NCBI GenBank assembly: GCA_965228895.1
Contig: OZ245842.1
Location: 4,576,001 to 4,640,000, forward strand
From: Alphaproteobacteria bacterium
Lineage (GTDB): Bacteria > Pseudomonadota > Alphaproteobacteria > SP197
Reading direction: 5' to 3'
Length of the DNA: 64,000 nucleotides
Shown: piece by piece, positions 235 through 61,499 of the stretch
Layout: each line of letters opens with the position of its first letter
How positions within the stretch are numbered: position 1 is the stretch's first letter
Made by a program: the position numbers and the translations under genes
The notes under the pieces: generated by a model
Database searches by the model: none
What the model was told of the DNA's origin: nothing
The model's input: only the letters and a program-made list of their open reading frames with translations

Positions 235-910
235 CGCTTGCACGCCGCCGATAGACGACCTCGCCACCACGGCCCTCGAATGTGAACTTCACCCATTCGC
301 CGCTGGCCGTGTACCAAAGCTTGGCGTCCAAGTCGCCCGACACGTCGTAACGCATGGTCTCGACTGTCTGCCCGGCGACAGCGATCGTCTCGCCGCCGAG
401 GTTTGTCACGTCGACCGTGATCAGGCGGCCCGATTGGGTGTCCAGCAACTGCGGTCGGTCGACCAGGGCGATGTTCCAATAGCTGGTCGGAACGACGTTC
501 AACGGCGCGACGTAACTGCCGCTGGAACTCTCGACAAGAAATCCATCATCGCCTGCTTGGCCGCGAAGCCAATGCTTCTCGCCGTTGTCATTGGTCGTTG
601 TCTCGATGGCGACCAACCCCCCGTCACGCCAGATTTCCGTGTTCTCGTGCTCGTAGCGGAAGACCGTGATGAAGGCCACCTTGACCTCCAAGGTAATCGC
701 GATGTCGACTTGCAAATCACCGTCCACTTGTCGAAACGTGACGCTGTGATGGCCAATCGGCTCGCCTTCGCGCAGCACGTCGAACGAAAGGTTCGGGCCC
801 TGGGCATGACCGGTTCCAGGCGCGGCAGCCCAGGCAACCGCAACCATCGTGGCAAACGCCAGCGTGAGAACGACGATGTTGGTTCGCGTCCGACAAATCT
901 GTTCGTTCAT
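221..910 (-). CDS. Exported protein, DUF6134-like
   Basis: Signal peptide, then FDVLREGEPIGHHSVTF ... FRYEHENTEIWRDG ... PTSYWN ... LLDTQSG ... LWY pattern; overlaps the SDR start. Confidence 0.75.
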   Translation of the reverse strand: MNEQICRTRTNIVVLTLAFATMVAVAWAAAPGTGHAQGPNLSFDVLREGEPIGHHSVTFRQVDGDLQVDIAITLEVKVAFITVFRYEHENTEIWRDGGLVAIETTTNDNGEKHWLRGQAGDDGFLVESSSGSYVAPLNVVPTSYWNIALVDRPQLLDTQSGRLITVDVTNLGGETIAVAGQTVETMRYDVSGDLDAKLWYTASGEWVKFTFEGRGGEVVYRRRASDDLG

Positions 911-964
911 GATGGTTTTACGGCAGTTTCCGCGTGCTGGATCGGCAATGATCCGTTCAGGCGA

Positions 965-1393
965 TCACCGCGCCGCCGCCTTCTTGTCGCGATGGTAGGT
1001 CAGCGCCGACGCGATGCAGGAGGCCACGATTTCGGTCGGCAAAGGATCGTTCTTGTCGAAAACGATGGCGCGATTGCCTTCGAACGTCAGGTTATCGCCG
1101 AACTGCGCGCGGAACGTTTCGACCAGGCTGGTGTTGCAGTTGAAATAGAGCGCATAGCGCGTCGGCATCGCCTTTTTCCAGCCGATCCGGATCGTGCTGC
1201 CGCTTTTCGACGCCTCGGTCAGATAGGCCGGCTCGCCCCATTTGAGCGTCTCCGTCAGCGGCCCGACGCCCTCGATGGCGTCGGCGGTCTCAAAAATCAG
1301 TTCGCGTAGGATCAGCATGCCCGGGCGAACGGCCGCGGGCGCGGCACCGAAGGCCGCGGAGACCGATCGTTCGATTGATGGTGCCATGGGCAT
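965..1393 (-). CDS. DUF1801 (YdhG-like) domain protein
   Basis: LRELIFETA...ETLKWGEPAY...GSTIRIGW...FNCNTSLVETF...FEGNRAI. Confidence 0.85.
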   Translation of the reverse strand: MPMAPSIERSVSAAFGAAPAAVRPGMLILRELIFETADAIEGVGPLTETLKWGEPAYLTEASKSGSTIRIGWKKAMPTRYALYFNCNTSLVETFRAQFGDNLTFEGNRAIVFDKNDPLPTEIVASCIASALTYHRDKKAAAR

Positions 1394-1496
1394 CACACGG
1401 TGATCCGTTCAGCGTGGATACCCTAGCACAGGCTAGGCCCTGCTCGCCGCCCCCGGACCGTGCCGAAGGACGGCGCGCAGTCATTGGCGCCTTCTA

Positions 1497-1706
1497 TCAG
1501 TTGCGGTTTCTGCCGCGCCGAACCACAAAGGCAACAAGGGCGACCAGACCGATGACAGCGGCCAGGATCGGCAACGCTTCAATGACGGCGTCGCCAAAAT
1601 GCCAGTGCGGCGCGCCGGCCGCCTCGTGGGCATGGGCGGAGAGTGCGAAAAGGCCCGGCAGAACCATGGCAAGGGTGGCGGCAATCAATCGGTTGAACAA
1701 CGTCAT
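1497..1706 (-). CDS. Small exported/membrane-anchored His-rich peptide
   Basis: Good SD (AAAGGA); signal peptide ending AHA, then HEAAGAPHWH, one hydrophobic helix and a basic tail RRGRNRN; 44 bp downstream of the ureohydrolase. Confidence 0.7.
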   Translation of the reverse strand: MTLFNRLIAATLAMVLPGLFALSAHAHEAAGAPHWHFGDAVIEALPILAAVIGLVALVAFVVRRGRNRN

Positions 1707-1750
1707 CGTGGTCTGTCCTTTCTGTTTCCAGGGGTTGGTAGGGGTTGGGT

Positions 1751-2935
1751 TCAGTCTGACATCACCTGGTCGCGGTGGCCGAGTTTGCCTTCGACGACCA
1801 TGGTGCCGAGGGTATCCAGGATCACCCGGCAGGCGAGCTGGGCGGTGTTGTCGTTAACGTCATAGGGCGGCGATACCTCGACCACCTCCATGCCGCACAG
1901 GCCTTCGCGCGCGATCAATCGCACCATTTCCAAGGCCTCGCGCGGCGTGAAACCGCCTGGCTCCGGCGTGCCCGTTCCCGGTGCGAAACCGGGGTCGATG
2001 GAATCGATGTCGAACGACAGGTAGACCGCCTTGGCGCCTTTCCAGGCGAGCTCCAACGCCATCTCGGCGGCTTTCTTGACGCCCAGTTCCTCCACATCGG
2101 TCATGGTCATGACGCTGGTGCCGCGCTCGTTGGCGACCTCCGAACCGCGCCTGGAGCCGTACCAGCCGCCGATGCCGATCTGCACCAGATTCTTCGGCGG
2201 ACAGTTGGCGAGACCGACGTCGTGCATGTGGGTGTGGGCATGATGGGACGAGCTCTTGTCGACGCTCTCGTGGCCATGGGACGTCCAGTACCAGGGCGTC
2301 GTGTGCATGCGCTCGTCCATATCCATGTCGGCCATGTCGATGTGGCGGTCGAAATGGATGATGCCGACATTGCCGTCGATATGGGGCGCGATGCCGCGCA
2401 CGTTGGGATAGCCGAGCGAATGATCGCCGCCGACCAGGATCGGGAAGGCGCCGGACGTATAGACGTGGGAGACGGCGAGGCTGACCTGATCGAACGTCTT
2501 CTCGATGTTGCCGGGGATGACGAAGATGTCGCCGGCATCGCACATGTCGAGCTCTTCGGGCAGGTCGACGCCGCCGTCGACCGAATAACCGTCATAGACT
2601 GCCGAGATGCGCCTGACCGCCTGCGGCCCGAAGCGGGTGCCCGGGCGATAGGTGGTGCCGGTATCGAACGGCACGCCAACGAAGGCGGCCTCATAGTCGC
2701 CGACCTTCTTGATGTCCTCGCAATAGGTTGACTTCATAAAGGTGTTGATGCCGGCGAAGGCCGGGAGGTGGCCGCGACTGAACAGCGAGATCGTCCGGTC
2801 GTGGATCGAATCCGCGGCTTCCAGGCCCAATTCCAGGGTCCTGGCGATCTCTTCGTCCTGTTTGGTCTGGGAGATCTTGCCCAGGCGCTTCAGGTTGCGG
2901 TTGCCGCGAAACTCTCCCGACTTCGGATCAGGCAT
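1751..2935 (-). CDS. Ureohydrolase (agmatinase family), guanidinase/GdmH-like clade
   Basis: GGDHS, DRHID, SFDIDSID, PGTGTPEPGG, EVSPPYD; N-terminal extension LELGLEAADSIHDRTISLFSRG...FAGINTF; SD GAGGGGG before ATG 2935. Confidence 0.9.
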   Translation of the reverse strand: MPDPKSGEFRGNRNLKRLGKISQTKQDEEIARTLELGLEAADSIHDRTISLFSRGHLPAFAGINTFMKSTYCEDIKKVGDYEAAFVGVPFDTGTTYRPGTRFGPQAVRRISAVYDGYSVDGGVDLPEELDMCDAGDIFVIPGNIEKTFDQVSLAVSHVYTSGAFPILVGGDHSLGYPNVRGIAPHIDGNVGIIHFDRHIDMADMDMDERMHTTPWYWTSHGHESVDKSSSHHAHTHMHDVGLANCPPKNLVQIGIGGWYGSRRGSEVANERGTSVMTMTDVEELGVKKAAEMALELAWKGAKAVYLSFDIDSIDPGFAPGTGTPEPGGFTPREALEMVRLIAREGLCGMEVVEVSPPYDVNDNTAQLACRVILDTLGTMVVEGKLGHRDQVMSD

Positions 2936-2987
2936 GATGCTCCCCCTCATGACGTTATCGTTCTTGGTCCCGCACGCTAGTGTCTGC

Positions 2988-3030
2988 TGGCGATTGCATC
3001 AATCGCCATATGGTCAATGCGGTGCATTGA
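2988..3030. promoter_or_regulatory. Two adjacent palindromes in the divergent promoter region
   Basis: TGGCGATTG-cat-CAATCGCCA (2988-3008) and TCAATGC-ggt-GCATTGA (3014-3030). Confidence 0.5.
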
Positions 3031-3107
3031 TCGCGGACGACATAGCCCTCTGCGGTTCAGTCGACTAGGTTTCCTGGATTGATTGGAACAACGGCCTTTG
3101 AGAAACC

Positions 3108-4523
3108 ATGGGCGTGAAACGTCTCATCCGGAACGCCTGCGTGATCTCCGTCGACCCGGAGATCGGCACCAAGCGTCGCGCCGACATCCTGATCGAAGAT
3201 GACCGCATCGCCGCGGTCGGATCCGATCTTGGTGTCGACGATGCCGAGACGATCGATGCCGGCGGCATGATCGCCATGCCCGGCCTTGTCTGTTGTCACC
3301 GGCATCTTTGGATGACGCTGCTGCGTGGCTTCATCTCCGACGGCACGTGGTCGAGCTATCTGGTCGAGACCTTTTGGGGCCGCCGGCCGCTCTATCGGCC
3401 CGAAGACAACCACATCGCATCCTATGCCGGCGCGCTGGAGGCAATCGATGCGGGCGTCACCACGGTGCTGGATTTCCACGATTGCAGCGTTCGCGAAGGC
3501 CTTGCCGATGCCAGTCTTGACGCTCTCGAAAAAAGCGGCCTGCGCGCCGTCTTTGCCTATGGGCTCGAAGGGCCGCCTGACTTCGGCGGCGCAGGCAGCG
3601 CCGAGGCAATGGCGCCGGCCCTGCCCTGGCACCGTGACGAGGCCAAACGTCTGCGCGGCGAACGGCTTGGCAGCGATGACGCCCTGGTCACCATGGGCAT
3701 CACCGCGCGCAATCTCGAGTTTCTCCCCTTCGCCTGCGCGAAGCACGATCTGGGCCTCGCCCGCGACCTCGGCGTGCGCACCGTGACCACCCATGCCGGT
3801 TCCGGCGCGCTGAGCAAGGGGGCGACCCTTGTCGACAACCTGCGGGACCACGATCTTCTGGGGCCGGACATCCTGTTTTCCCACGGCCAGAGCTTCACCG
3901 ACGACGAGCTCGATATCCTGGCGGCCACGGGCGTGAAGATCGTGGTGTCCGTCGAGAGCGAGCTGGGCCAAGGCGCCGATCCCGTCACCTGGCGCGCCCT
4001 TCAGCATGGTGTCACGGTGAGCCTGGGCGCCGATTCCGTCGGCAGCCTGGCCGGCGACATGTTTCGCCATATGCAGATGACGCTGAAAGTCGGGCGCGGC
4101 TCACGGGCGCGGCTTATGGATCAGCAGGGCATCGCGCCGACGGATGTGGCGCTCACGACCCGCGACATGCTGGAGATCGCCACCATGGGCGGCGCTCGCT
4201 CCCTGCGCCTGGAAGACAGGATCGGCAGCCTGACGCCCGGCAAACAGGCCGACATCATCCTGCTGTCGCGCAAGCGGGTCGGCATGATGTCCGGCGCCGA
4301 TCCCGAACAGATCGCGGTCCTGCAGGCCAACGGCGGCGACGTCGATACGGTGCTGGTGGCCGGGCGGGTGCTGAAGCGCCACGGCGTTCTGCTGGAGGCC
4401 GACCTGGATACCGTTGCGTGCGACCTCGAGGCGTCGCGTGCCTATCTCGACGACGCCTATGAGCGCCTTGATACAGACATCATGTGGGATGCCTATAACG
4501 CCAAGGTGGCCGCGGCATCCTAG
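3108..4523 (+). CDS. Amidohydrolase family protein (SsnA/MTA-deaminase-like)
   Basis: PGLVCCHRHLW (HxH), AGVTTVLD, THAG, SHG, SLGADS, IGSLTPGKQADI. Confidence 0.9.
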   Translation: MGVKRLIRNACVISVDPEIGTKRRADILIEDDRIAAVGSDLGVDDAETIDAGGMIAMPGLVCCHRHLWMTLLRGFISDGTWSSYLVETFWGRRPLYRPEDNHIASYAGALEAIDAGVTTVLDFHDCSVREGLADASLDALEKSGLRAVFAYGLEGPPDFGGAGSAEAMAPALPWHRDEAKRLRGERLGSDDALVTMGITARNLEFLPFACAKHDLGLARDLGVRTVTTHAGSGALSKGATLVDNLRDHDLLGPDILFSHGQSFTDDELDILAATGVKIVVSVESELGQGADPVTWRALQHGVTVSLGADSVGSLAGDMFRHMQMTLKVGRGSRARLMDQQGIAPTDVALTTRDMLEIATMGGARSLRLEDRIGSLTPGKQADIILLSRKRVGMMSGADPEQIAVLQANGGDVDTVLVAGRVLKRHGVLLEADLDTVACDLEASRAYLDDAYERLDTDIMWDAYNAKVAAAS

Positions 4524-4540: not shown

Positions 4541-5971
4541 TCAGCCAACCTGAACCGGGATGGCGAGCGCTCGTTCGATCAAGGCACGGGCGGCGCCTTC
4601 GCCTTCCTGAAGCGAGCGGCCGAAGGCGAGCAGCTGTTCGTCGGCCCAGGACCGCGCAACAATCTGAACGCAGACCGGTAGCCCGTCCTTGCCGATACCG
4701 ACCGGCACGACGAGGACGGGTGACGCGGTCAACGAGAACGGCGTCGTATAGGCGATCGCCCGCCAAAAGAACGCCTCGTCCAGCGTCTCGCCGTGGCGCG
4801 GCGCCACGGTCGGCGCGGCCGGGCAGACCAGGAAATCATAGGTCTCGAACAGCCGGTTGACGGTCAGGCGGAACGCCTCCCAGCGGCTCATCAGGACAAT
4901 GAAGTCGCTGGCCGGCCGCTCGTCCAGCTTGCCGACGCTCTCAAGCCAGAACGCCATCGAGGGCGACATGGCGTCGAGACCGGTCACAGTGTCGACCGCT
5001 TGGCGCAGAAGATGACCGGCATCGGCGCTGAACAGGCCATAGGCGATGTCACCGCCTTCGGCGAACAGCGCATCGAGATCAGGCGTGTCGACGACATAAG
5101 ACGGCTCTAACGCCGCGCCAAAAGCCTTGATGGCCTCGACGATTTCCGGCTCCGGCGGCGCTGTCGGGCTGCCGGTGGATAAGGCAATTCTGACGCCGCC
5201 CGGGCGTGGTGGCGCCGCGCGCCCGATGATGCCGTCGGTCTTGGGATCGTCGGGGTCGGGACCGCCGATTACCTGAAAGACCAGTTCCAGGTCGCGGACG
5301 CTGCGGGCAAGCGGGGCAATCCGGCACATCTGCCCCTTCATGCCCGAACAGCCGAAGAGGTAACCGGCCGACGAGACCCTGCCCAACGAGGGGCGGTGGG
5401 CGAACAGGCCACAGCAATGGGCGGTGTTGCGGCTGCCGCCGCCGAAATCGCTGCCGATGACGACGGGAAGGGCCCGGGCCTTGACCAAGGCCGCGCCGCC
5501 GCCCGTGCTGCCACCGGGCGATCGGGCGCGATCGATCGGATTGTTGGTGCGCCCGTAGATCAGGTTATCGGTCTCGATCGAGGTGCCGAGTTCCGGCGTG
5601 TTGGTCAGGCCGAGCAGGACACTGCCGGCCGCGTCGAGCCGGTTGACCACCGTGGCGCTGAGCGAGGAGACATGATTGGCATGGCCCATCGTGCCGAAGG
5701 TCGTGATCCAGCCCTCGACCTCCAGACAATCCTTGACCGCATAGGGCAGACCCCAGAACGGACCCGCCGACGGGTTCCGGTCGCGATCCGACGCCACGTC
5801 AAGGGACCAATCGGGCCGCTGCTGCACCATGCCGTTGATCGCCGGCTCCACAGCATCCAAGCGGTCAAGATGGGCGGCAATGACCTCGCGGCTGCTAGCG
5901 TCGCCGCGCGCCAGAAGATCGCCGAGGGCGACAAGATCAAGGTCAAACAGATCCACCGGCGCCTCCGGCAA
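4541..5971 (-). CDS. Amidase signature family protein
   Basis: GLPYAVKD, TNTPE, GRTNNP, SPGGSTGG, GSDFGGGSR, GLPVCVQ. Confidence 0.88.
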   Translation of the reverse strand: MPEAPVDLFDLDLVALGDLLARGDASSREVIAAHLDRLDAVEPAINGMVQQRPDWSLDVASDRDRNPSAGPFWGLPYAVKDCLEVEGWITTFGTMGHANHVSSLSATVVNRLDAAGSVLLGLTNTPELGTSIETDNLIYGRTNNPIDRARSPGGSTGGGAALVKARALPVVIGSDFGGGSRNTAHCCGLFAHRPSLGRVSSAGYLFGCSGMKGQMCRIAPLARSVRDLELVFQVIGGPDPDDPKTDGIIGRAAPPRPGGVRIALSTGSPTAPPEPEIVEAIKAFGAALEPSYVVDTPDLDALFAEGGDIAYGLFSADAGHLLRQAVDTVTGLDAMSPSMAFWLESVGKLDERPASDFIVLMSRWEAFRLTVNRLFETYDFLVCPAAPTVAPRHGETLDEAFFWRAIAYTTPFSLTASPVLVVPVGIGKDGLPVCVQIVARSWADEQLLAFGRSLQEGEGAARALIERALAIPVQVG

Positions 5972-11639: not shown

Positions 11640-12890
11640 CTAAGACGACGCGCGCTCCAGCATGGCGTGCAGCAGGACGTTGCAGCCGGCCTCCAGATCG
11701 TCCTTCGCCGCGTTCTCGATCTCATTGTGGCTGATACCGCCTTCGCAGGGCACGAAGATCATCGCGGTCGGCGCGACCCGGCTGACATAGACGGCGTCGT
11801 GACCGGCGCCCGAAACCATGTCCATGTGGTCATAGCCCAGCAGGCGCGCCGCGCCACGCACCGCATCGACACAGCCGGTGTCGAAGGCGACCGGCGGTGA
11901 CACCCAGATCTCGTCGATCTCGATCGTCACGCCGCGCTCGGCCGCGATAGCCTCGGCGGTCGCGCGCATGTCACGGTCAAGGCCTGCGAACGCTTCGGCG
12001 TCGGGGTGGCGGATGTCGACGGACATCAGGACTTCGCCGGCAATGGTGTTGCGCGTGTGCTCGGGGTTGCAGTGGTTGATCTTGACCGTGGTGCGGCCGT
12101 GGGGGCCGGCGGCGCGTGCGTTCGCATCGAGCTTGGTGATCAGCTCAGCGCTGGCGACGAGCGCATCCTTGCGCATGGTCATCGGCGTTGGACCCGCATG
12201 GGCTTCCATGCCGGTGACGGCGACATCGTACCAACGGATACCCTGGACGCCGGTGACGACGCCGACCGGCTTTTTCTCCGCCTCCAGGATCGGGCCCTGT
12301 TCTATGTGCGCCTCGAAGTGGTGGCCGAGCGCATGGCCACCGGGCTCCTCCGGCCCCAGATAGCCGATGCGTTCGAGCTCGCCGCCCATGGTCTTGCCGT
12401 CGGTGTCTTCCTGCGCGTGGGCATAGTCGAGCGCGAACTCGCCGGCAAAGACGCCGGAGCCAATCATGGCGGGCGCGAACCGGGCGCCTTCTTCGTTGGT
12501 CCAGCAGATCACCTCCATCGGCGCTTCGGTTTCGATGCCGGCATCGTTCAGCGTACGGACGACCTCGAGCCCCGCAAGCACGCCATAGACGCCGTCGAAC
12601 TTGCCGCCGGTCGGCTGGGTATCCAGGTGGCTGCCGGTCGAGACCGGCTTGGCATCGCCGTCGCGCCCCGGACGGCGGGCGAAGATGTTGCCCATCTTGT
12701 CGACCGTGCAGGTCATGCCGGCCTCCTCGCACCAGCGGACAAAAAGGTCGCGGCCCTCCTTATCGTCATCGGACAGCGCCAGTCGGCAATTGCCGCCCTT
12801 TTCCGTCGCGGCGATCTTCGCCATCTCCATGATGCTCGCCCAGAGCCGGTCGGCGTTGGCGGCGAGGCCTTCGTTGGTCTTGCTGTTCAC
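11640..12890 (-). CDS. Zn-dependent hydrolase (N-carbamoyl-amino acid/beta-ureidopropionase, M20 family)
   Basis: GSHLDTQPTGGKFDG, WTNEEGARF, EAHIEQGP, HAGPTPM, SGAGHDA, GISHNEIE; GTG 12890 with SD AAGGAG. Confidence 0.93.
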   Translation of the reverse strand: MNSKTNEGLAANADRLWASIMEMAKIAATEKGGNCRLALSDDDKEGRDLFVRWCEEAGMTCTVDKMGNIFARRPGRDGDAKPVSTGSHLDTQPTGGKFDGVYGVLAGLEVVRTLNDAGIETEAPMEVICWTNEEGARFAPAMIGSGVFAGEFALDYAHAQEDTDGKTMGGELERIGYLGPEEPGGHALGHHFEAHIEQGPILEAEKKPVGVVTGVQGIRWYDVAVTGMEAHAGPTPMTMRKDALVASAELITKLDANARAAGPHGRTTVKINHCNPEHTRNTIAGEVLMSVDIRHPDAEAFAGLDRDMRATAEAIAAERGVTIEIDEIWVSPPVAFDTGCVDAVRGAARLLGYDHMDMVSGAGHDAVYVSRVAPTAMIFVPCEGGISHNEIENAAKDDLEAGCNVLLHAMLERASS

Positions 12891-13777
12891 GGTGTCTCCT
12901 TGGTTGTCGATCCACGGCGGGTTCGGCTCATTGTGATGATCAGGATGCAGGCCACAACCACCAAGACCGCGCCCAGGGTGGTCCAGCCTGTCGGCAAGCG
13001 GTCGAATACCAACCAATCGAGCAGGGCGGAAAAGACGACGGCCGAATAACCGAGCGGTGCCACCACATAGGCCGGGGCAAAGTTGAAGGCGTACAGAAGG
13101 CAGGTCGTGGACGCCAGAAGTAGCACCCCGACGAGGGCCAGATGAAACCAGGTCTCGGGCGGCATGGGCCGCCACTGCAGCGCCGCAGGTACGGCCATCA
13201 AGACGACGCCGGTGGCGAAGATGTAACAGAGGGTCCTGAGGACCGGTTCGCCCGCCTGGTCGACGCGGCGCGACAGGATACTCTGAAAGGCAAAAAGGAT
13301 ACCGGCGGCGATCCCGAACAGATAGCCGATCTCGAACGTCGTGTAACCGGGATGCAGGACCAGTGCCATACCGATAAACCCAAGGACGATGCCGATCCAT
13401 AGGCGGTTCGGCATCGTCTCCTTCCAAAACAGCACCAGCAGAACCGGGATCCACAGTGGCGCGGCATCGCGCAAGAGAATGCCGTCGACAAGCGAGATGG
13501 TTTGCAGGGCGATGAACAGCGAGACGACCTGGACAATTCCCACCACCGACCGGACGACCAACAAGCCGGTGTTGGTTGATGCCAGGAACCGCCTGCCACG
13601 GGTAAGCGCGATCGGGACGATGACAGCGGCGGGAAAGGCAAAACTCAAGAACGAGATCACAAACTCGCCGGCGTTTTTCGACGCAAGCTGCACGAACAGG
13701 CCGGCGCCGGCGAAACAAGCGCCGGCAACGGTCACCAGCAGCGCACCGGCGACGATGTCGTCTCGAGGAGCCGTCAC
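12887..13777 (-). CDS. DMT/EamA family transporter
   Basis: About 10 TM helices; VVAPLGYSAVVFSALLDW; overlaps the hydrolase start. Confidence 0.88.
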   Translation of the reverse strand: MTAPRDDIVAGALLVTVAGACFAGAGLFVQLASKNAGEFVISFLSFAFPAAVIVPIALTRGRRFLASTNTGLLVVRSVVGIVQVVSLFIALQTISLVDGILLRDAAPLWIPVLLVLFWKETMPNRLWIGIVLGFIGMALVLHPGYTTFEIGYLFGIAAGILFAFQSILSRRVDQAGEPVLRTLCYIFATGVVLMAVPAALQWRPMPPETWFHLALVGVLLLASTTCLLYAFNFAPAYVVAPLGYSAVVFSALLDWLVFDRLPTGWTTLGAVLVVVACILIITMSRTRRGSTTKETP

Positions 13778-32948: not shown

Positions 32949-33914
32949 TCACAATGGCCCGTCGCGTTCCTTTGTAAGGTGATGCAGCAACCCGCCTACC
33001 GCCTCATCGAAGGCGAGATCACCGGAAAGCACACGGTCGCACAATGCCCCGAGCGCATCGGGTCCCAGGTCATGGGCCCGGTCGCGGGCCAGATCGGCGA
33101 CCGCTGCGATCAGTAGCTGACCCATGCGCCGGCGCGCACCGTCGACGCCCGATGCCGCCTTGCGCGCACCGAGTTCCATCATTGTGTCGACGAGCGCTTC
33201 AACACCATCGCCCCTGACCGCGATCGTCTTGAGCACGACCGGCCGGCGGTCTTCCGGTAAATAGGATGACGCGCCCTTCAGTGCGGCTTCGGTCTGCACG
33301 GCCTGGGGCAAATCCGACTTGTTGACGACCAGAACGTCGGCAATTTCCAGGATGCCGGCTTTGGCGGCCTGGACCTCGTCGCCGGCGCCCGGCGCCCAGA
33401 CGACGACGCGAATATCGGCCAAGCCGGCGATCTCGATCTCCGACTGGCCGACGCCGACGGTTTCGACCAGGACAACGTCCTTGCCGCCGGCGTCCATCAC
33501 GTCGACCAGCCGCGCGGTGTTGCGCGACAGGCCGCCCAGGTGGCCACGCGAAGCGACCGAGCGCACGAAGACATCGGGGTCGCCGGCATGGTCAAGCATA
33601 CGCACACGGTCACCGAGCAGCGCGCCGCCGGTAAAGGGGCTGGACGGATCGACCGCCAGGACGCCGACCGTCCGGGATCGCGCGCGAAGATCGCGAATGA
33701 CCGCCGACACCAAGGTCGACTTGCCCGCACCCGGCGCACCGGTGATCCCGACCACAAGCGCACGGCCGGTTCTGCCATGGGCGGCACGCAGCACGACTGC
33801 TGCTTCGTCGGTATCGTTCTCCACCGCGGTGATCGCGCGCGCAAGCGCGGCACGGTCGCCTTCGAACAGGCGATCGATCCAGGTTGCGGTCGAAGTTGGG
33901 GAAGACGCAGACAT
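32949..33914 (-). CDS. meaB: MeaB/ArgK G3E GTPase
   Basis: GITGAPGAGKST, AVDPSSPFTGGALLGDRVRM, ETVGVGQSE, VNKSD. Confidence 0.95.
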   Translation of the reverse strand: MSASSPTSTATWIDRLFEGDRAALARAITAVENDTDEAAVVLRAAHGRTGRALVVGITGAPGAGKSTLVSAVIRDLRARSRTVGVLAVDPSSPFTGGALLGDRVRMLDHAGDPDVFVRSVASRGHLGGLSRNTARLVDVMDAGGKDVVLVETVGVGQSEIEIAGLADIRVVVWAPGAGDEVQAAKAGILEIADVLVVNKSDLPQAVQTEAALKGASSYLPEDRRPVVLKTIAVRGDGVEALVDTMMELGARKAASGVDGARRRMGQLLIAAVADLARDRAHDLGPDALGALCDRVLSGDLAFDEAVGGLLHHLTKERDGPL

Positions 33915-58124: not shown

Positions 58125-59378
58125 TCAGGTAACGACGGGCAGCTTCGCCGGCGTATGCTGCAGAAATTCGGCGCCGTCTTCGGTGAACACCATCATGTCG
58201 ATGAACATCGACATGCCGGCCAGGTTCGGCAGGTAGAAGTTGGCTTCGTAGTTCGTTGTCATGCCGGGCTCGAACACCTCGTCGCCGGGATCGGTGTGGA
58301 CGTCGTAGTACCACGGCCCGACCCAGTCAGGCGGAAACGACATGCCGAGATCGTAACCGCCGACCCAGCATTGATCATCCCAAATACCGGTCTCGCGGTA
58401 ATACGTCTCGATAGTATCGAGCAGCTCGCGCACCGGGAGGTTGGGCCGGATGACATCGCTAAGCATCGCCTTGACGCCGGTGATCGCGTCGAGATAGCGG
58501 TCGACCTCCGGGTGCGGTTCGCCGATGCAGAACGTGCGCGCCATGTTGGTGTGGTAGCGGTTGTAGACACCGCATAGATCGATGTTGACGACGTCGCCGG
58601 CCATGATCTTGCGCCTTGATGCCAGCGCATGCATGCACGCGCTCTTGGCACCCGACGAGACCGGCATGGTGATCGACGGGTTTTCGCCGCCAGCCTGCGC
58701 CATAGCGCGCACCATCTCGCCATAGACGTCCAGTTCCGTGACGCCGGCGCGGATCGTATCGCGCGCGGCTTGCATGCCGATATCGCCGATACGCGCGGCC
58801 GTGCGGGTATAGGCGATTTCCTGAGGCGACTTGATCTTGCGCACACCGCCGACGATGTCCGTGCCGTCGACGACGGTCGCGCCCTTGCCTTCGAGCAGGG
58901 CCTGTAACATTTCGCTGACGCCGCGATTGGGGCGATAGCTGAACATCTCCAGCCCGACCCGGCCCTTCAGCCAGCCTTCGTCCGCCAGATTGTCGACGAT
59001 GAAGTCCAGCATGGAGTCCATCGGCTGGGCATCGCCGCCGAAGATGCGGAGGTCGCGCGAGATCGCGGTGAAGCCGGCCAGGACCTGCTCGTTCTGCACC
59101 TCGAAATGGATGAAGTCGTCGGCGTCGACGTTCACCGCCACACCGCTGACCGGCATCCACGATGTCGGCCCTTGGGCCTGATACCACTCGGCCCGGAAGC
59201 CGGAGAGATAACAGATGGCTTCCGGCGAGGTCAGGTAGAGCGTGTCGACCGAGGCCGCCGCCATCGCCGCGCGCACGCGCTCCAGCCGGCCGCGATACTC
59301 CTCCAAAGAAAACACCGTTTCCATCTCTGGCCGGATGAAACGAAGCGTCCGTTCCTTGTGGCTCATCGTTTGCGGCAC
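58125..59378 (-). CDS. M24 family creatinase/ectoine-hydrolase-like protein
   Basis: FSLEEYRGRL, YLSGF, RKIKSPQEI, MHA, YHTNMART, GYDLG..FPPDW. Confidence 0.85.
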   Translation of the reverse strand: MPQTMSHKERTLRFIRPEMETVFSLEEYRGRLERVRAAMAAASVDTLYLTSPEAICYLSGFRAEWYQAQGPTSWMPVSGVAVNVDADDFIHFEVQNEQVLAGFTAISRDLRIFGGDAQPMDSMLDFIVDNLADEGWLKGRVGLEMFSYRPNRGVSEMLQALLEGKGATVVDGTDIVGGVRKIKSPQEIAYTRTAARIGDIGMQAARDTIRAGVTELDVYGEMVRAMAQAGGENPSITMPVSSGAKSACMHALASRRKIMAGDVVNIDLCGVYNRYHTNMARTFCIGEPHPEVDRYLDAITGVKAMLSDVIRPNLPVRELLDTIETYYRETGIWDDQCWVGGYDLGMSFPPDWVGPWYYDVHTDPGDEVFEPGMTTNYEANFYLPNLAGMSMFIDMMVFTEDGAEFLQHTPAKLPVVT

Positions 59379-59504
59379 CTGGTCCTCCCGTCGCGTCCCC
59401 GGGTCATCCTAAGGGCCTGAATAGGCAGCAACAAACGCTCGATTCCGGGAACGGATTTCGTCATAGTTCGCCGCTTCCGCCGACCCCGTCTCCGGAGAAA
59501 CCAC

Positions 59505-61499
59505 GTGGCGCTTACCCTCGGCATCGATACCGGTGGCACCTACACGGATGCCGTGTTGTTCGACACGGCCAGCGGCACCGTCATGGCGAAGGCCAAGTCG
59601 CTGACCACCAAGCACGACCTGACGGAAGGCGTGCGTGGCGCGGTCGAGCAGGTGATTGGGACGAGCGGCGCGGACATCGGCCTGGTGTCGATCTCGACCA
59701 CGCTGGCCACCAACGCCATTGTCGAAGGGCAAGGCAGTCCCGCCGCCTTGGTGTTGATCGGCCATCAGCCGCGCGATCTCGAACGCCCGGATATCGCGAG
59801 TGCGCTGGCGCAGGACCCCTCTGTCCTGACCGCCGGCGGTCACGACGCGACCGGCGATGAAACGGCCCCGCTGGACCTCGACACCGTGCGTGAGTTCGCC
59901 CAGGACCAGCAGGGCCGCGTTGCCGCCTTCGCGGTCTCGGCCATGTTCGCCGTACGCAACCCCGCCCACGAGATTGCCGCCCGCGATTTGATCCGCGCGG
60001 AGACCGGGCTGCCGGTGACCTGCGCCCATGAGCTGAGCTCCAACCTGGACGCGCCGCGGCGTGCGCTGACCGCGTTGTTGAACGCGCGCCTAATCCCTTT
60101 GATCCAGGACCTCATCTTGGCGGTACGGGGCCTGATGCAAGGCTACGGCATCGCGGCGCCCCTGATGGTGGTGAAGGGCGACGGCTCGTTGATCGATGCT
60201 GATGTGGCGCTTGTCTCGCCGGTCGAGACCATCATGTCAGGGCCGGCGGCCAGTGTCGTCGGTGCGCGTCAACTGGCCGAGCTCGACAACGCCTTCGTTT
60301 CGGATATCGGCGGCACCACGACCGATGTCGCGCTGGTGACCGAGGGCATGCCGCAATTGAGCCGCGACGGCGCGGAGGTCGGCGACTTCCGCACCATGGT
60401 CGAGGCGGTCTCGGTCCATACCAGCGGTTTGGGCGGCGACAGCGAGTTGAACCTGGACGACCGTGGCCGTTTGGTCGCCGGACCGCGCCGCGCGGTACCG
60501 CTGAGCCTTCTGGCCAGCAGCCACCCGATGGTCCTGCGCGAGCTGGAACGCCAGGTCGAACGCGGTTACGCCAACCAGTGGGACGGTCAATTCGCCCTGC
60601 GCCAACGCGCCCTCGACACGTCGCTCGACACCATGTCGTCATCTCAGAAGCGGCTGTGGGAGCGCCTGGAGAAAGGTCCGGTATCGCTCGCCGCGCTCTA
60701 CCAAGACGAGACGCCAACGCTGGCGCTGCGCCGCCTGACCGGCCGGGGCCTGGTCATCCTGTCGCGCCTGACACCCAGCGACGCGGCTCATCTGCGCGGC
60801 CTGCAGGCGACCTGGGATCCGCGTGGCGCCGAACTGGGCGCGGCCTTGTGGCTGCGTCAGTGGCAGGCCAGCGGCCACCATGCGCCCGACGACATCGAAA
60901 GTTTCTGTGAGGCCATCTTCGAGACGGTCAGGACCCAGTCGGCACGCGCCCTGCTCGCCGCGGCCGTCGCCGAGGAGTACGGGCAGAGCCTGCCCGCCGG
61001 GCGCGCTGCGGATCTGTTTATCGACCGGCCGCTTTCCGGTGAGACCGGGCGCCTGTTCGCCATGAAGCTGGAGCTGCATCATCCGATCGTCGCGATCGGC
61101 GCGCCGGCGGCCGCCTATTACCCGCCGGTCGGTGAGCGCCTGGGGACCCGCGTCGTCGTGCCCGAACACGCGGAAGTCTGCAACGCCGTCGGCGCCGTCG
61201 CCGGCGGCGTGACCCAACGAGTCGACGCGCTGATCACCGCCCCTTCCGAGGGCCTCTACCGGTGCCACCTGCCCGACAACGTTGCCGACTTTCAGGACCT
61301 GGAAAAGGCCGCCGACCACGGCCTAAGGGTCATCACCGAGGCCGCGGCGCAAATGGCCGAGGCCGCCGGCGCCGTTGATGTGACCTTGTCGAGCCAGCGC
61401 GACGACAACGTGGTGCGCGGCGGCGATGGGCTTGAGACCTTCATCGAGAGCCGGTTGCGCGCGACCGCCACCGGCCGCCCAAGATTGAGCAAAACCTGA
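59505..61499 (+). CDS. Hydantoinase/oxoprolinase A-like protein
   Basis: LGIDTGGTYTD, STTLATNA, RNPAHE, SGPAAS, DIGGTTTD, GLGGDS, NAVGA. Confidence 0.9.
   Translation: MALTLGIDTGGTYTDAVLFDTASGTVMAKAKSLTTKHDLTEGVRGAVEQVIGTSGADIGLVSISTTLATNAIVEGQGSPAALVLIGHQPRDLERPDIASALAQDPSVLTAGGHDATGDETAPLDLDTVREFAQDQQGRVAAFAVSAMFAVRNPAHEIAARDLIRAETGLPVTCAHELSSNLDAPRRALTALLNARLIPLIQDLILAVRGLMQGYGIAAPLMVVKGDGSLIDADVALVSPVETIMSGPAASVVGARQLAELDNAFVSDIGGTTTDVALVTEGMPQLSRDGAEVGDFRTMVEAVSVHTSGLGGDSELNLDDRGRLVAGPRRAVPLSLLASSHPMVLRELERQVERGYANQWDGQFALRQRALDTSLDTMSSSQKRLWERLEKGPVSLAALYQDETPTLALRRLTGRGLVILSRLTPSDAAHLRGLQATWDPRGAELGAALWLRQWQASGHHAPDDIESFCEAIFETVRTQSARALLAAAVAEEYGQSLPAGRAADLFIDRPLSGETGRLFAMKLELHHPIVAIGAPAAAYYPPVGERLGTRVVVPEHAEVCNAVGAVAGGVTQRVDALITAPSEGLYRCHLPDNVADFQDLEKAADHGLRVITEAAAQMAEAAGAVDVTLSSQRDDNVVRGGDGLETFIESRLRATATGRPRLSKT

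Follow-up and report, generated by a model that had tools for sequence, protein, structure and literature searches.

We analyzed a 64,000-nucleotide stretch of an alphaproteobacterial genome (GTDB lineage SP197; GenBank assembly GCA_965228895.1, contig OZ245842.1, positions 4,576,001 to 4,640,000), hereafter the window, in which positions are counted from the first letter. Near its start, the minus strand encodes a GdmH-like ureohydrolase of 394 amino acids (aa; 1751..2935) with a His-rich insert, followed by a 69-aa open reading frame (ORF; 1497..1706). The insert is universal among the relatives compared and the Trp that confers guanidine specificity is replaced by Thr or Ser; as judged from alignment and phylogeny, the enzyme therefore belongs to a sister clade of the nickel-dependent guanidine hydrolases (GdmH and the Nitrospira guanidinase) that is large and uncharacterised. 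Instead of plain guanidine, the enzyme probably acts on a substituted one, for which methylated guanidines are candidates. Our joint reading, held tentatively and at somewhat less than an even chance, is that a nickel-type enzyme of this sister clade would act on a substituted guanidine, that the insert would bind and pass on nickel, and that the 69-aa peptide would aid nickel capture in the periplasm.

The enzyme ORF extends over 1751..2950 by way of an upstream in-frame ATG; the ATG at 2935 is the likelier start, because a GGGGGAG run precedes it and the N-termini of relatives begin there. Pfam places the 394-aa product in the arginase family (PF00491, E = 9e-79). HMMER searches of PDB sequences returned Nitrospira inopinata guanidinase (9fek, E = 7e-133) and Synechocystis GdmH (7esr/7oi1, E = 2e-131) as the best matches, followed by guanidinobutyrase (E = 5.5e-45) and metformin hydrolase subunits (E = 1e-29 to 1e-36); matches to agmatinase or GbuA ranged from E = 1e-33 to 1e-45. 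The AlphaFold2 (AF2) model, with a mean predicted local distance difference test score (pLDDT) of 81.7, aligned to 9fek and 7esr with TM-scores of 0.85–0.90 at 51–54% identity (53–54% for 9fek). All six metal ligands (H182, D207, H209, D211, D299 and D301 in N. inopinata numbering) are conserved in the aligned segments GGDHS, HFDRHID and SFDIDSID, as are the equivalents of T105 (GTTYR), H222 (ERMH) and E344, following the residue list in the available text of PMC11410670. A sequence-only reading of this DNA had likened the enzyme to GdmH and recommended an alignment and a tree. The PDB matches and the model bear the likeness out, and the comparison places the two solved guanidinases nearest, with DmgH/MefH-type enzymes at 25–28% identity; scores against the NCBI agmatinase SpeB equivalog TIGR01230 (170.3 versus a cut-off of 174.3 bits) and PRK02190 (202.9 versus 302) fall below threshold.

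A protein search with the window enzyme gave 7970 matches at E up to 1e-20, the best 120 of which are metagenomic proteins of 394–416 aa that are 85–92% identical to it. A scan of one genome per species yielded 363 relatives, and the best 80 (74–98% identity) were taken with 10-kb flanks; these are the 80 loci, designated by L-numbers. Together with the window, the two sets make 201 sequences. Relative to both solved guanidinases, the window enzyme has an unmatched insert of 21 residues (ORF residues 222–242; 2225..2287, minus strand) containing six His, located between the ERMHTTPWY segment and HDVGL in the HMMER alignments to 9fek and 7esr/7oi1; this is the segment of about 20 residues that had been placed by eye at approximately 2215–2285. 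The insert is present in 201 of 201 sequences, with a segment length of 18–32 residues and 3–10 His. Its first half varies in length and sequence yet remains rich in His, Asp and Glu, and the segment ends in H-x-x-H-x-H-M-H-D in 199 of 201 sequences, a nonamer that includes the His and Asp following the insert.

Guanidinases are classed by Thr105, His222 and Trp313 (N. inopinata numbering), and the guanidine specificity of GdmH rests on Thr97 and Trp305, according to the available text of PMC11410670. Counterparts of Thr105 and His222 are present in the window enzyme, and the Trp is not: at the position of N. inopinata W313 and Synechocystis W305, the codon at 1967..1969 (minus strand) encodes Thr, where GTGTPE aligns with GTGWPE. 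GTGTPE is also found in the guanidinobutyrase alignment. This residue is Thr in 167 and Ser in 33 of the 201 sequences and unreadable in one fragment, so that insert and Thr/Ser occur together in 200 of 200 readable sequences. In a quick maximum-likelihood tree of 88 rows, from which the fragments L021 and L028 and the N-containing L032 were left out, 78 insert-bearing sequences formed one clade (Shimodaira–Hasegawa-like approximate likelihood ratio test, SH-aLRT, 99) beside five W-type homologues that lack the insert, with the insert columns kept in and long branches flagged at the base. Enzymes 85–86% identical to that of the window also occur in metagenome-assembled genomes (MAGs) labelled Chloroflexota or Acidobacteriota (L025, L045 and L036), besides many Alpha- and Gammaproteobacteria; either horizontal transfer or wrong binning would account for them. 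Our literature search, which included the available text of papers on methylguanidine and on nickel ureohydrolases, found no description of this insert-bearing clade, and searches for His-rich ureohydrolases and for DUF6732 gave nothing relevant.

The neighbours of the relatives point to a small nitrogen compound as substrate. A NitT/TauT-type ATP-binding cassette (ABC) system lies beside approximately 30 of the 80 loci, a LysR regulator beside 29, a glutamine-synthetase-like enzyme beside 19, and N-methylglutamate-pathway-like genes beside a few. The ABC substrate-binding protein found beside the clade is not of the TIGR03427 type, scoring 32.9 bits versus 523.7 for the one beside a W-type homologue; such a transporter in cyanobacteria, GimABC, imports guanidine (PMC12704784). 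Directly upstream of the enzyme in six loci is an APC-family permease that matches the trimethylamine-N-oxide (TMAO) permease model at 850 bits (cut-off 690), which hints at a small methylated nitrogen substrate. The six are L016, L017, L020, L067 (7923–9578), L073 and L080, of Mesorhizobium, Aminobacter, Pseudaminobacter, Ancylobacter and Hyphomicrobium type. In the mechanism that we propose, the enzyme still has the catalytic His and the binuclear metal site, Thr takes the place of the Trp that limits the pocket to plain guanidine, and a small substituted guanidine would be hydrolysed to urea and an amine with nickel at the active site.

Nickel dependence of the clade is well supported by association. 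We classed the downstream slot, defined as the 1.3 kb 3′ of the enzyme gene, in the 80 loci by tblastn with proteins from the loci themselves. A nickel permease lies directly downstream on the same strand in 33 loci, starting 5–106 bp past the enzyme stop: HupE/UreJ in 15 (PF04955, E = 5e-56 for a representative), an RcnA/NicO-like (NiCoT-like) membrane protein of approximately 230 aa in 16, and a HoxN/NixA-family transporter in two (428 bits, cut-off 333). Two of the 16 are decayed genes, with 39 aa left in L047 and an incomplete copy in L043. The ~230-aa protein (L014:11231-11920, L051:11274-11978 and 14 more loci) has an N-terminal H-A-L-E-A-D-H motif and a central His-rich loop; because its matches to NicO, DsbD_2 and RcnA-type models are weak (17–27 bits), we regard it as a poorly covered putative nickel/cobalt transporter family.

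GdmH, DmgH and MefH are activated with HypA/HypB-like proteins (PMC12704784, PMC11399263). A true HypB (408 bits, cut-off 385) was found near the enzyme in four of the 80 loci, directly upstream of a tandem ureohydrolase pair in which one member has a degenerate metal site, resembling the DmgH/MefH heteromers (L048:6593-9908, L052:12209-15657, L053:12154-15616 and L057:3690-7065). In L048 the insert-bearing gene follows the tandem pair in the same direction; in the other three it lies beside it. The window itself differs: Pfam searches of its 54 ORFs and custom HupE, NiCoT, HoxN and HypB profiles run against 1155 stop-to-stop ORFs revealed no hypA/hypB, ghaA/ghaB, HupE or NiCoT gene in the 64 kb, the only echo being a weak G3E-family match to a MeaB gene at 32949–33914. 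The proposed nickel connection of the enzyme is thus backed by its relatives' permeases and HypB genes, and the reported lack of adjacent hypA/hypB holds across the entire window.

The insert begins 8 residues past the equivalent of N. inopinata H222, a His that we take to be the counterpart of the arginase proton-shuttle His, and from this spacing we infer that the loop sits at the rim of the active site. AF2 modelled the insert as disordered, with residues 221–239 below pLDDT 50, and we draw no loop geometry from the model for this reason. Nickel chaperones such as HypB, UreE and SlyD carry flexible His/Asp/Glu-rich stretches tied to nickel delivery, and the HypB proteins of L052, L053 and L057 have His-rich N-terminal stretches. 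By analogy, the most likely role of the insert would be that of a flexible loop that binds Ni(II) and either delivers it to the binuclear centre or keeps it close by, doing within the enzyme what His-rich tails do on separate chaperones. We rejected the idea that absence of nearby nickel genes predicts the insert, which is universal in the clade whatever the neighbours; since it is also present where nickel permeases or HypB are encoded alongside, the insert is not a simple replacement for them. Nor is it needed for doing without HypAB, because the N. inopinata guanidinase has neither an insert nor, in its genome, known chaperones; in the available text of PMC11410670 the authors call its loading mechanism unclear on account of the missing chaperones.

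His-rich parts also occur elsewhere in the family. An N-terminal His-rich tail, defined as five or more His within the 50 residues preceding the conserved core, was seen in 14 of the 25 sequences with a short insert and in none of the 54 with a long one, a pattern that represents one or two evolutionary events rather than 14, because the tails are confined to one subclade. They contain 6–12 His and belong to the subclade with the shortest insert (L016, L017, L020, L064, L065, L067, L069, L070, L072, L073, L074, L077, L078 and L080); their conservation across genera indicates that they are probably translated. A Hyphomicrobium MAG (L080:19690-21153) encodes a second insert-bearing enzyme copy with a His-rich N-terminal tail, approximately 8.5 kb downstream of the first.

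Searching plasmid records by tblastn gave 11 homologues at 53–61% identity, and all six that were examined lack the insert. Three of these, from Limimaricola, Rhodobacteraceae SC52 and Sinorhizobium fredii NGR234, are W-type and are followed within a few bases by a gene for a 149–179-aa protein whose N-terminus is extremely rich in His and whose C-terminal part is conserved (L082:8157-8672, L083:8157-8606 and L084:7136-7675), for which no Pfam or NCBIfam family matched. After it comes HupE in Sinorhizobium and a 54-aa ORF in Limimaricola. No such protein follows the enzyme on two Rubrobacter plasmids or in Embleya, and tblastn at E up to 0.1 found none in the window or in any of the 80 insert-bearing loci. 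The protein is a candidate new nickel chaperone, and the complementarity between a separate protein and the insert, seen in three lineages only, fits a His-rich module that may be separate or built in.

A different account of the insert is possible, if on the unlikely side: it would be a substrate lid or specificity loop, perhaps with a fixed structural metal, that co-evolved with the Trp-to-Thr/Ser change to admit a larger guanidine and has no part in nickel delivery. Since insert and Thr/Ser are always paired in our sample, the insert could indeed serve specificity instead, and its start so close to the catalytic His, together with an ABC binding protein unlike the TIGR03427 type, would suit such a role. 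The near-invariance of the last nine segment positions does so too, but the first half of the same segment varies while staying rich in His and acidic residues, and AF2 shows no ordered lid. The Embleya homologue, an actinobacterial sequence with Thr yet without the insert that falls outside the insert clade, uncouples the two features. The His-rich tails at the other end of the protein in one subclade, and the separate His-rich protein after three insert-lacking homologues, are likewise at odds with a lid.

Turning to the second element, the 69-aa ORF (1497..1706, minus strand) starts 44 bp after the enzyme stop on the same strand, as the sequence-only reading had it, and the spacer (1707..1750) contains a Shine-Dalgarno-like AAGGA 9 nt before its ATG. 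A scan of 900–3300 for promoters and terminators found nothing on the minus strand, including no terminator between the two genes, and the ORF would be co-transcribed with the enzyme, in the slot that holds a nickel permease in many relatives. Its product comprises a signal-peptide-like helix ending in A-H-A, then HEAAGAPHWHFGD, one transmembrane (TM) helix and a basic tail; read by eye, the cleavage-type A-H-A site is followed by HEAAGAPHWH and a further hydrophobic helix. AF2 predicted helices at residues 2–30 and 37–68, joined by G-A-P-H-W-H. Seven homologues share 77–84% identity, and all are 69 aa long; no substitutions occur in S-A-H-A-H...A-G-x-P-H-W-H-x-G-D or over much of the second helix, the His segment and the TM helix being the best-kept parts. 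Compared with the L001 homologue, the ORF has 24.5 synonymous and 14.5 non-synonymous differences, a ratio of non-synonymous to synonymous rates (dN/dS) of 0.16, against 0.023 for the enzyme gene. By this measure of its sequence evolution, the 69-aa ORF is a real, selected gene.

The peptide has one Arg near its N-terminus and an R-R-G-R-N-R-N tail. By the positive-inside rule, this distribution would expose the His segment on the periplasmic side, both if the first helix is cleaved off and if it stays on as part of a hairpin. As the enzyme is cytoplasmic, the peptide would not load it directly. The topology suggests that the peptide at most aids nickel capture or uptake: it would display a short periplasmic His motif on one membrane helix, possibly with a free N-terminal His after cleavage, and would help to capture or import nickel. 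A four-copy complex prediction of the mature peptide (residues 27–69; score 0.05, mark 0.42) speaks neither way. The ORF matched no Pfam (E up to 10) or NCBIfam family, and neither it nor its seven homologues matched DUF6732 (PF20506). Unnamed ESM Atlas clusters of 64–69 aa were retrieved at 0.88–0.89, which is below the trusted level; an 821-aa repetitive protein was judged a spurious relative.

Short ORFs of the same build recur in the downstream slot. We described the build as a signal-peptide-like start ending in A-H, more His within approximately 20 residues and one hydrophobic helix; it is found in the slot of L037, L041, L061, L066, L076 and L078, making seven loci with L001. The pattern fits 7 of 43 ORFs of 45–95 aa in the slot versus 3 of 5765 elsewhere in the same DNA, a contrast that is partly circular because the pattern was written after the ORFs were seen. 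Over the first ~60 positions of the HupE profile, the ORFs of L078, L041, L076 and L037 scored 21.7, 18.7, 16.6 and 15.4 bits, and these four also gave sub-threshold Pfam matches to HupE_UreJ or DUF6732. The DUF6732 matches, at 14–18 bits (cut-off 27), came from the short ORFs of L041, L078 and L082. The L078 ORF is 37.5% identical to HupE residues 4–65 and contains no HupE sequence beyond; in L075, similarity to the HupE N-terminus was detected by tblastn only. Mapped onto the enzyme tree, the short ORFs are spread over at least four distinct positions, and several lie within groups of HupE-bearing loci. From this nesting and the N-terminal alignments, some of them are, on sequence evidence, truncated HupE genes in which only the signal peptide, N-terminal His and first helix remain. 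The 54-aa ORF downstream of the insert-lacking Limimaricola homologue has the same build, and so does a 76-aa ORF outside the slot, approximately 1.5 kb upstream of the enzyme in L045 (1042–1272, minus strand).

The 69-aa peptide had been likened to HupE/UreJ nickel transporters, in which a His stands at the mature N-terminus. The analogy is apt in that HupE occupies the same slot in 15 loci and four short slot ORFs align to its N-terminus. The window peptide itself shows no such similarity: HupE is a polytopic permease of ~190–210 aa, whereas the ORF has two predicted helices, and we rejected it as a HupE fragment at 0.5 bits against a profile of eight HupE proteins from related loci and an hhalign probability of 0.4%. 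The link is best described as an analogy of position and build. The nearest published parallel is a His that becomes N-terminal when the signal peptide is cleaved and then serves as a metal ligand, in domains attached to HupE/UreJ-2 permeases for which metal-fishing is proposed in the available text of PMC12537917.

Alternatively, the 69-aa ORF may encode a small membrane protein of other origin, or be the remnant, still translated, of a transporter gene since lost; it would have no nickel role and owe its position to chance gene loss. We consider this unlikely, though it deserves to be taken seriously. The peptide is an orphan, known from its own cluster, present in one of the 80 loci and found in no longer form (a negative that is weak evidence), and permeases do decay in this slot, as the L047 fragment and the partial L043 copy show. 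In the nearest relatives, L002 and L010, the slot is empty. The ORF resembles neither HupE nor other permeases, and tblastn found no permease remnants in the 1.5 kb downstream of it in the window or L001. A relic would fit poorly with the dN/dS of 0.16, the preferential conservation of the His segment and TM helix, and the exact length of 69 aa in all eight known members; an accidental position is hard to square with the recurrence of same-build ORFs in the slot at four or more places on the tree, one more following an insert-lacking homologue.

It is improbable that the gene encodes a standard Mn-dependent agmatinase, or a hydrolase of guanidino acids, on which the His-rich segment is neutral decoration: relatives of the enzyme bear the database names ‘agmatinase’ or ‘agmatinase family protein’ and Thr at the Trp position is typical of agmatinase-type enzymes, guanidinobutyrase included, but the enzyme does not reach the equivalog cut-off for agmatinase, matches the nickel guanidinases (E = 1e-131 to 1e-133) far better than it does agmatinase or GbuA, has relatives with nickel permeases in 33 of 80 slots, and shares its insert with all 201 sequences.

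Several observations weigh against our joint reading of a nickel-type enzyme with a nickel-handling insert and a nickel-capturing peptide. The case for nickel dependence comes from homology and gene neighbourhood, and in 47 of the 80 loci the slot holds no nickel permease, two of these loci ending within approximately 400 bp of the gene. As for the insert, it is kept in L048 despite a HypB in the same operon; its near-invariant end suits a fixed structural or catalytic site equally well as, or better than, a loose metal-fishing tail; it always accompanies the Trp-to-Thr/Ser change, which in Embleya occurs without it; and the N-terminal tails trace back to one or two events. The 69-aa family is found in L001 alone among the 80 loci, an exhaustive profile search of 1.84 billion representatives returned only its own cluster, its likeness to HupE does not extend to sequence, and the slot-pattern test carries the circularity described above. 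Co-occurrence of insert and peptide, and conservation of the small ORF beside homologues, had been named as checks; neither was found. Of the idea that the two form a self-contained nickel module substituting for the usual chaperones, the nickel context and the His-rich modules fit, whereas the parts are not co-inherited, the insert is retained alongside HypB, its near-invariant end could just as well gate the substrate or hold a fixed metal, and the peptide would be periplasmic. The module idea is in this sense partly supported, the roles of insert and peptide being inferred.

A broader view, which we put forward as doubtful, is that nickel ureohydrolases have evolved a chaperone-free nickel supply in interchangeable parts, namely a His-rich module and a downstream entry device, with the window as the most reduced case, a loop plus a peptide. 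The module feeding the binuclear site could be a rim loop, an N-terminal tail or a separate protein of a new family, and the entry device could range from HupE, NicO-like and HoxN permeases to single-helix peptides with an N-terminal His. The first helix of HupE may have given rise to such peptides several times over, and they may still act as minimal periplasmic nickel catchers.

The surroundings of the two genes contain further enzymes acting on nitrogen compounds. Divergent from the ureohydrolase is a PRK08204-type amidohydrolase (3108..4523, plus strand; NF006056, 427 bits, cut-off 391; PF01979), also present in L001, and beside it lies an amidase-signature enzyme (4541..5971, minus strand; PF01425, E = 7e-80), whose cluster was found in five sources including the window. 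A DUF1801 gene (965..1396, minus strand; PF08818, E = 3.5e-9) starts 100 bp downstream of the small ORF and has a homologue in the same place in L001; we know of no link between DUF1801 and nickel. Creatinase/M24-type and hydantoinase/oxoprolinase-type genes and an M20 amidohydrolase are encoded at 58125–61499 and 11640–12899, and by the presence of these genes the region is rich in enzymes for small nitrogen compounds. Rfam searches brought no family to threshold, guanidine riboswitches included, either in the whole window at the gathering score or in 1300–3300 at E up to 1.

This clade bears on how nickel ureohydrolases obtain their metal, in that the enzyme contains a conserved loop of its own that is a candidate for metal handling. 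The clade is also large, with 363 relatives among species-representative genomes and several phyla by MAG labels. Because its members lack the Trp on which guanidinase surveys rely, a possibly sizeable marine sink for some guanidine compound may have been left unassigned. The single-helix peptides with an N-terminal His, if functional, would be smaller than any other known relative or mimic of a nickel permease.

Compared with known systems, the window enzyme shares with GdmH (Sll1077) and the N. inopinata guanidinase the arginase fold, the long N-terminal extension, the metal ligands and the T105/H222/E344 set. Unlike either, it has a 21-residue insert, Thr in place of Trp and no guanidine riboswitch, and the ABC binding protein beside its relatives is of a different kind. 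As for the N. inopinata guanidinase in the available text of PMC11410670, no chaperone genes lie beside it; in cyanobacteria, by contrast, adjacency of ghaA/ghaB is common, if not universal (PMC12704784). DmgH, MefH and MfmAB are nickel-dependent ureohydrolases for substituted guanidines, as proposed here for the window enzyme, but they form heteromers in which one subunit is active and the other degenerate, lack the insert and share 25–28% identity with the window enzyme. The DmgH/MefH operons have hypA, hypB and a hupE homologue downstream, and activation needed co-expressed HypAB (PMC11399263). With HupE/UreJ (PF04955) the 69-aa peptide shares the downstream slot and, as read by eye, a putative signal peptide after which His would follow directly, whereas at 69 aa and two helices against ~190–210 aa it has no sequence or profile similarity to that family. 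The Ang-1 and Ang-2 ‘anglerase’ domains on HupE/UreJ-2 are periplasmic and membrane-tethered, with a His ligand exposed by cleavage, as we propose for the peptide; in the available text of PMC12537917 they are folded units of ~175–180 residues fused to a permease, whereas the window peptide would present a segment of ~15 residues on a lone helix with no permease nearby. Finally, the His-rich regions of HypB, UreE and SlyD are located on proteins separate from the enzymes they serve, whereas here the His-rich segment is an internal loop of the client enzyme itself.

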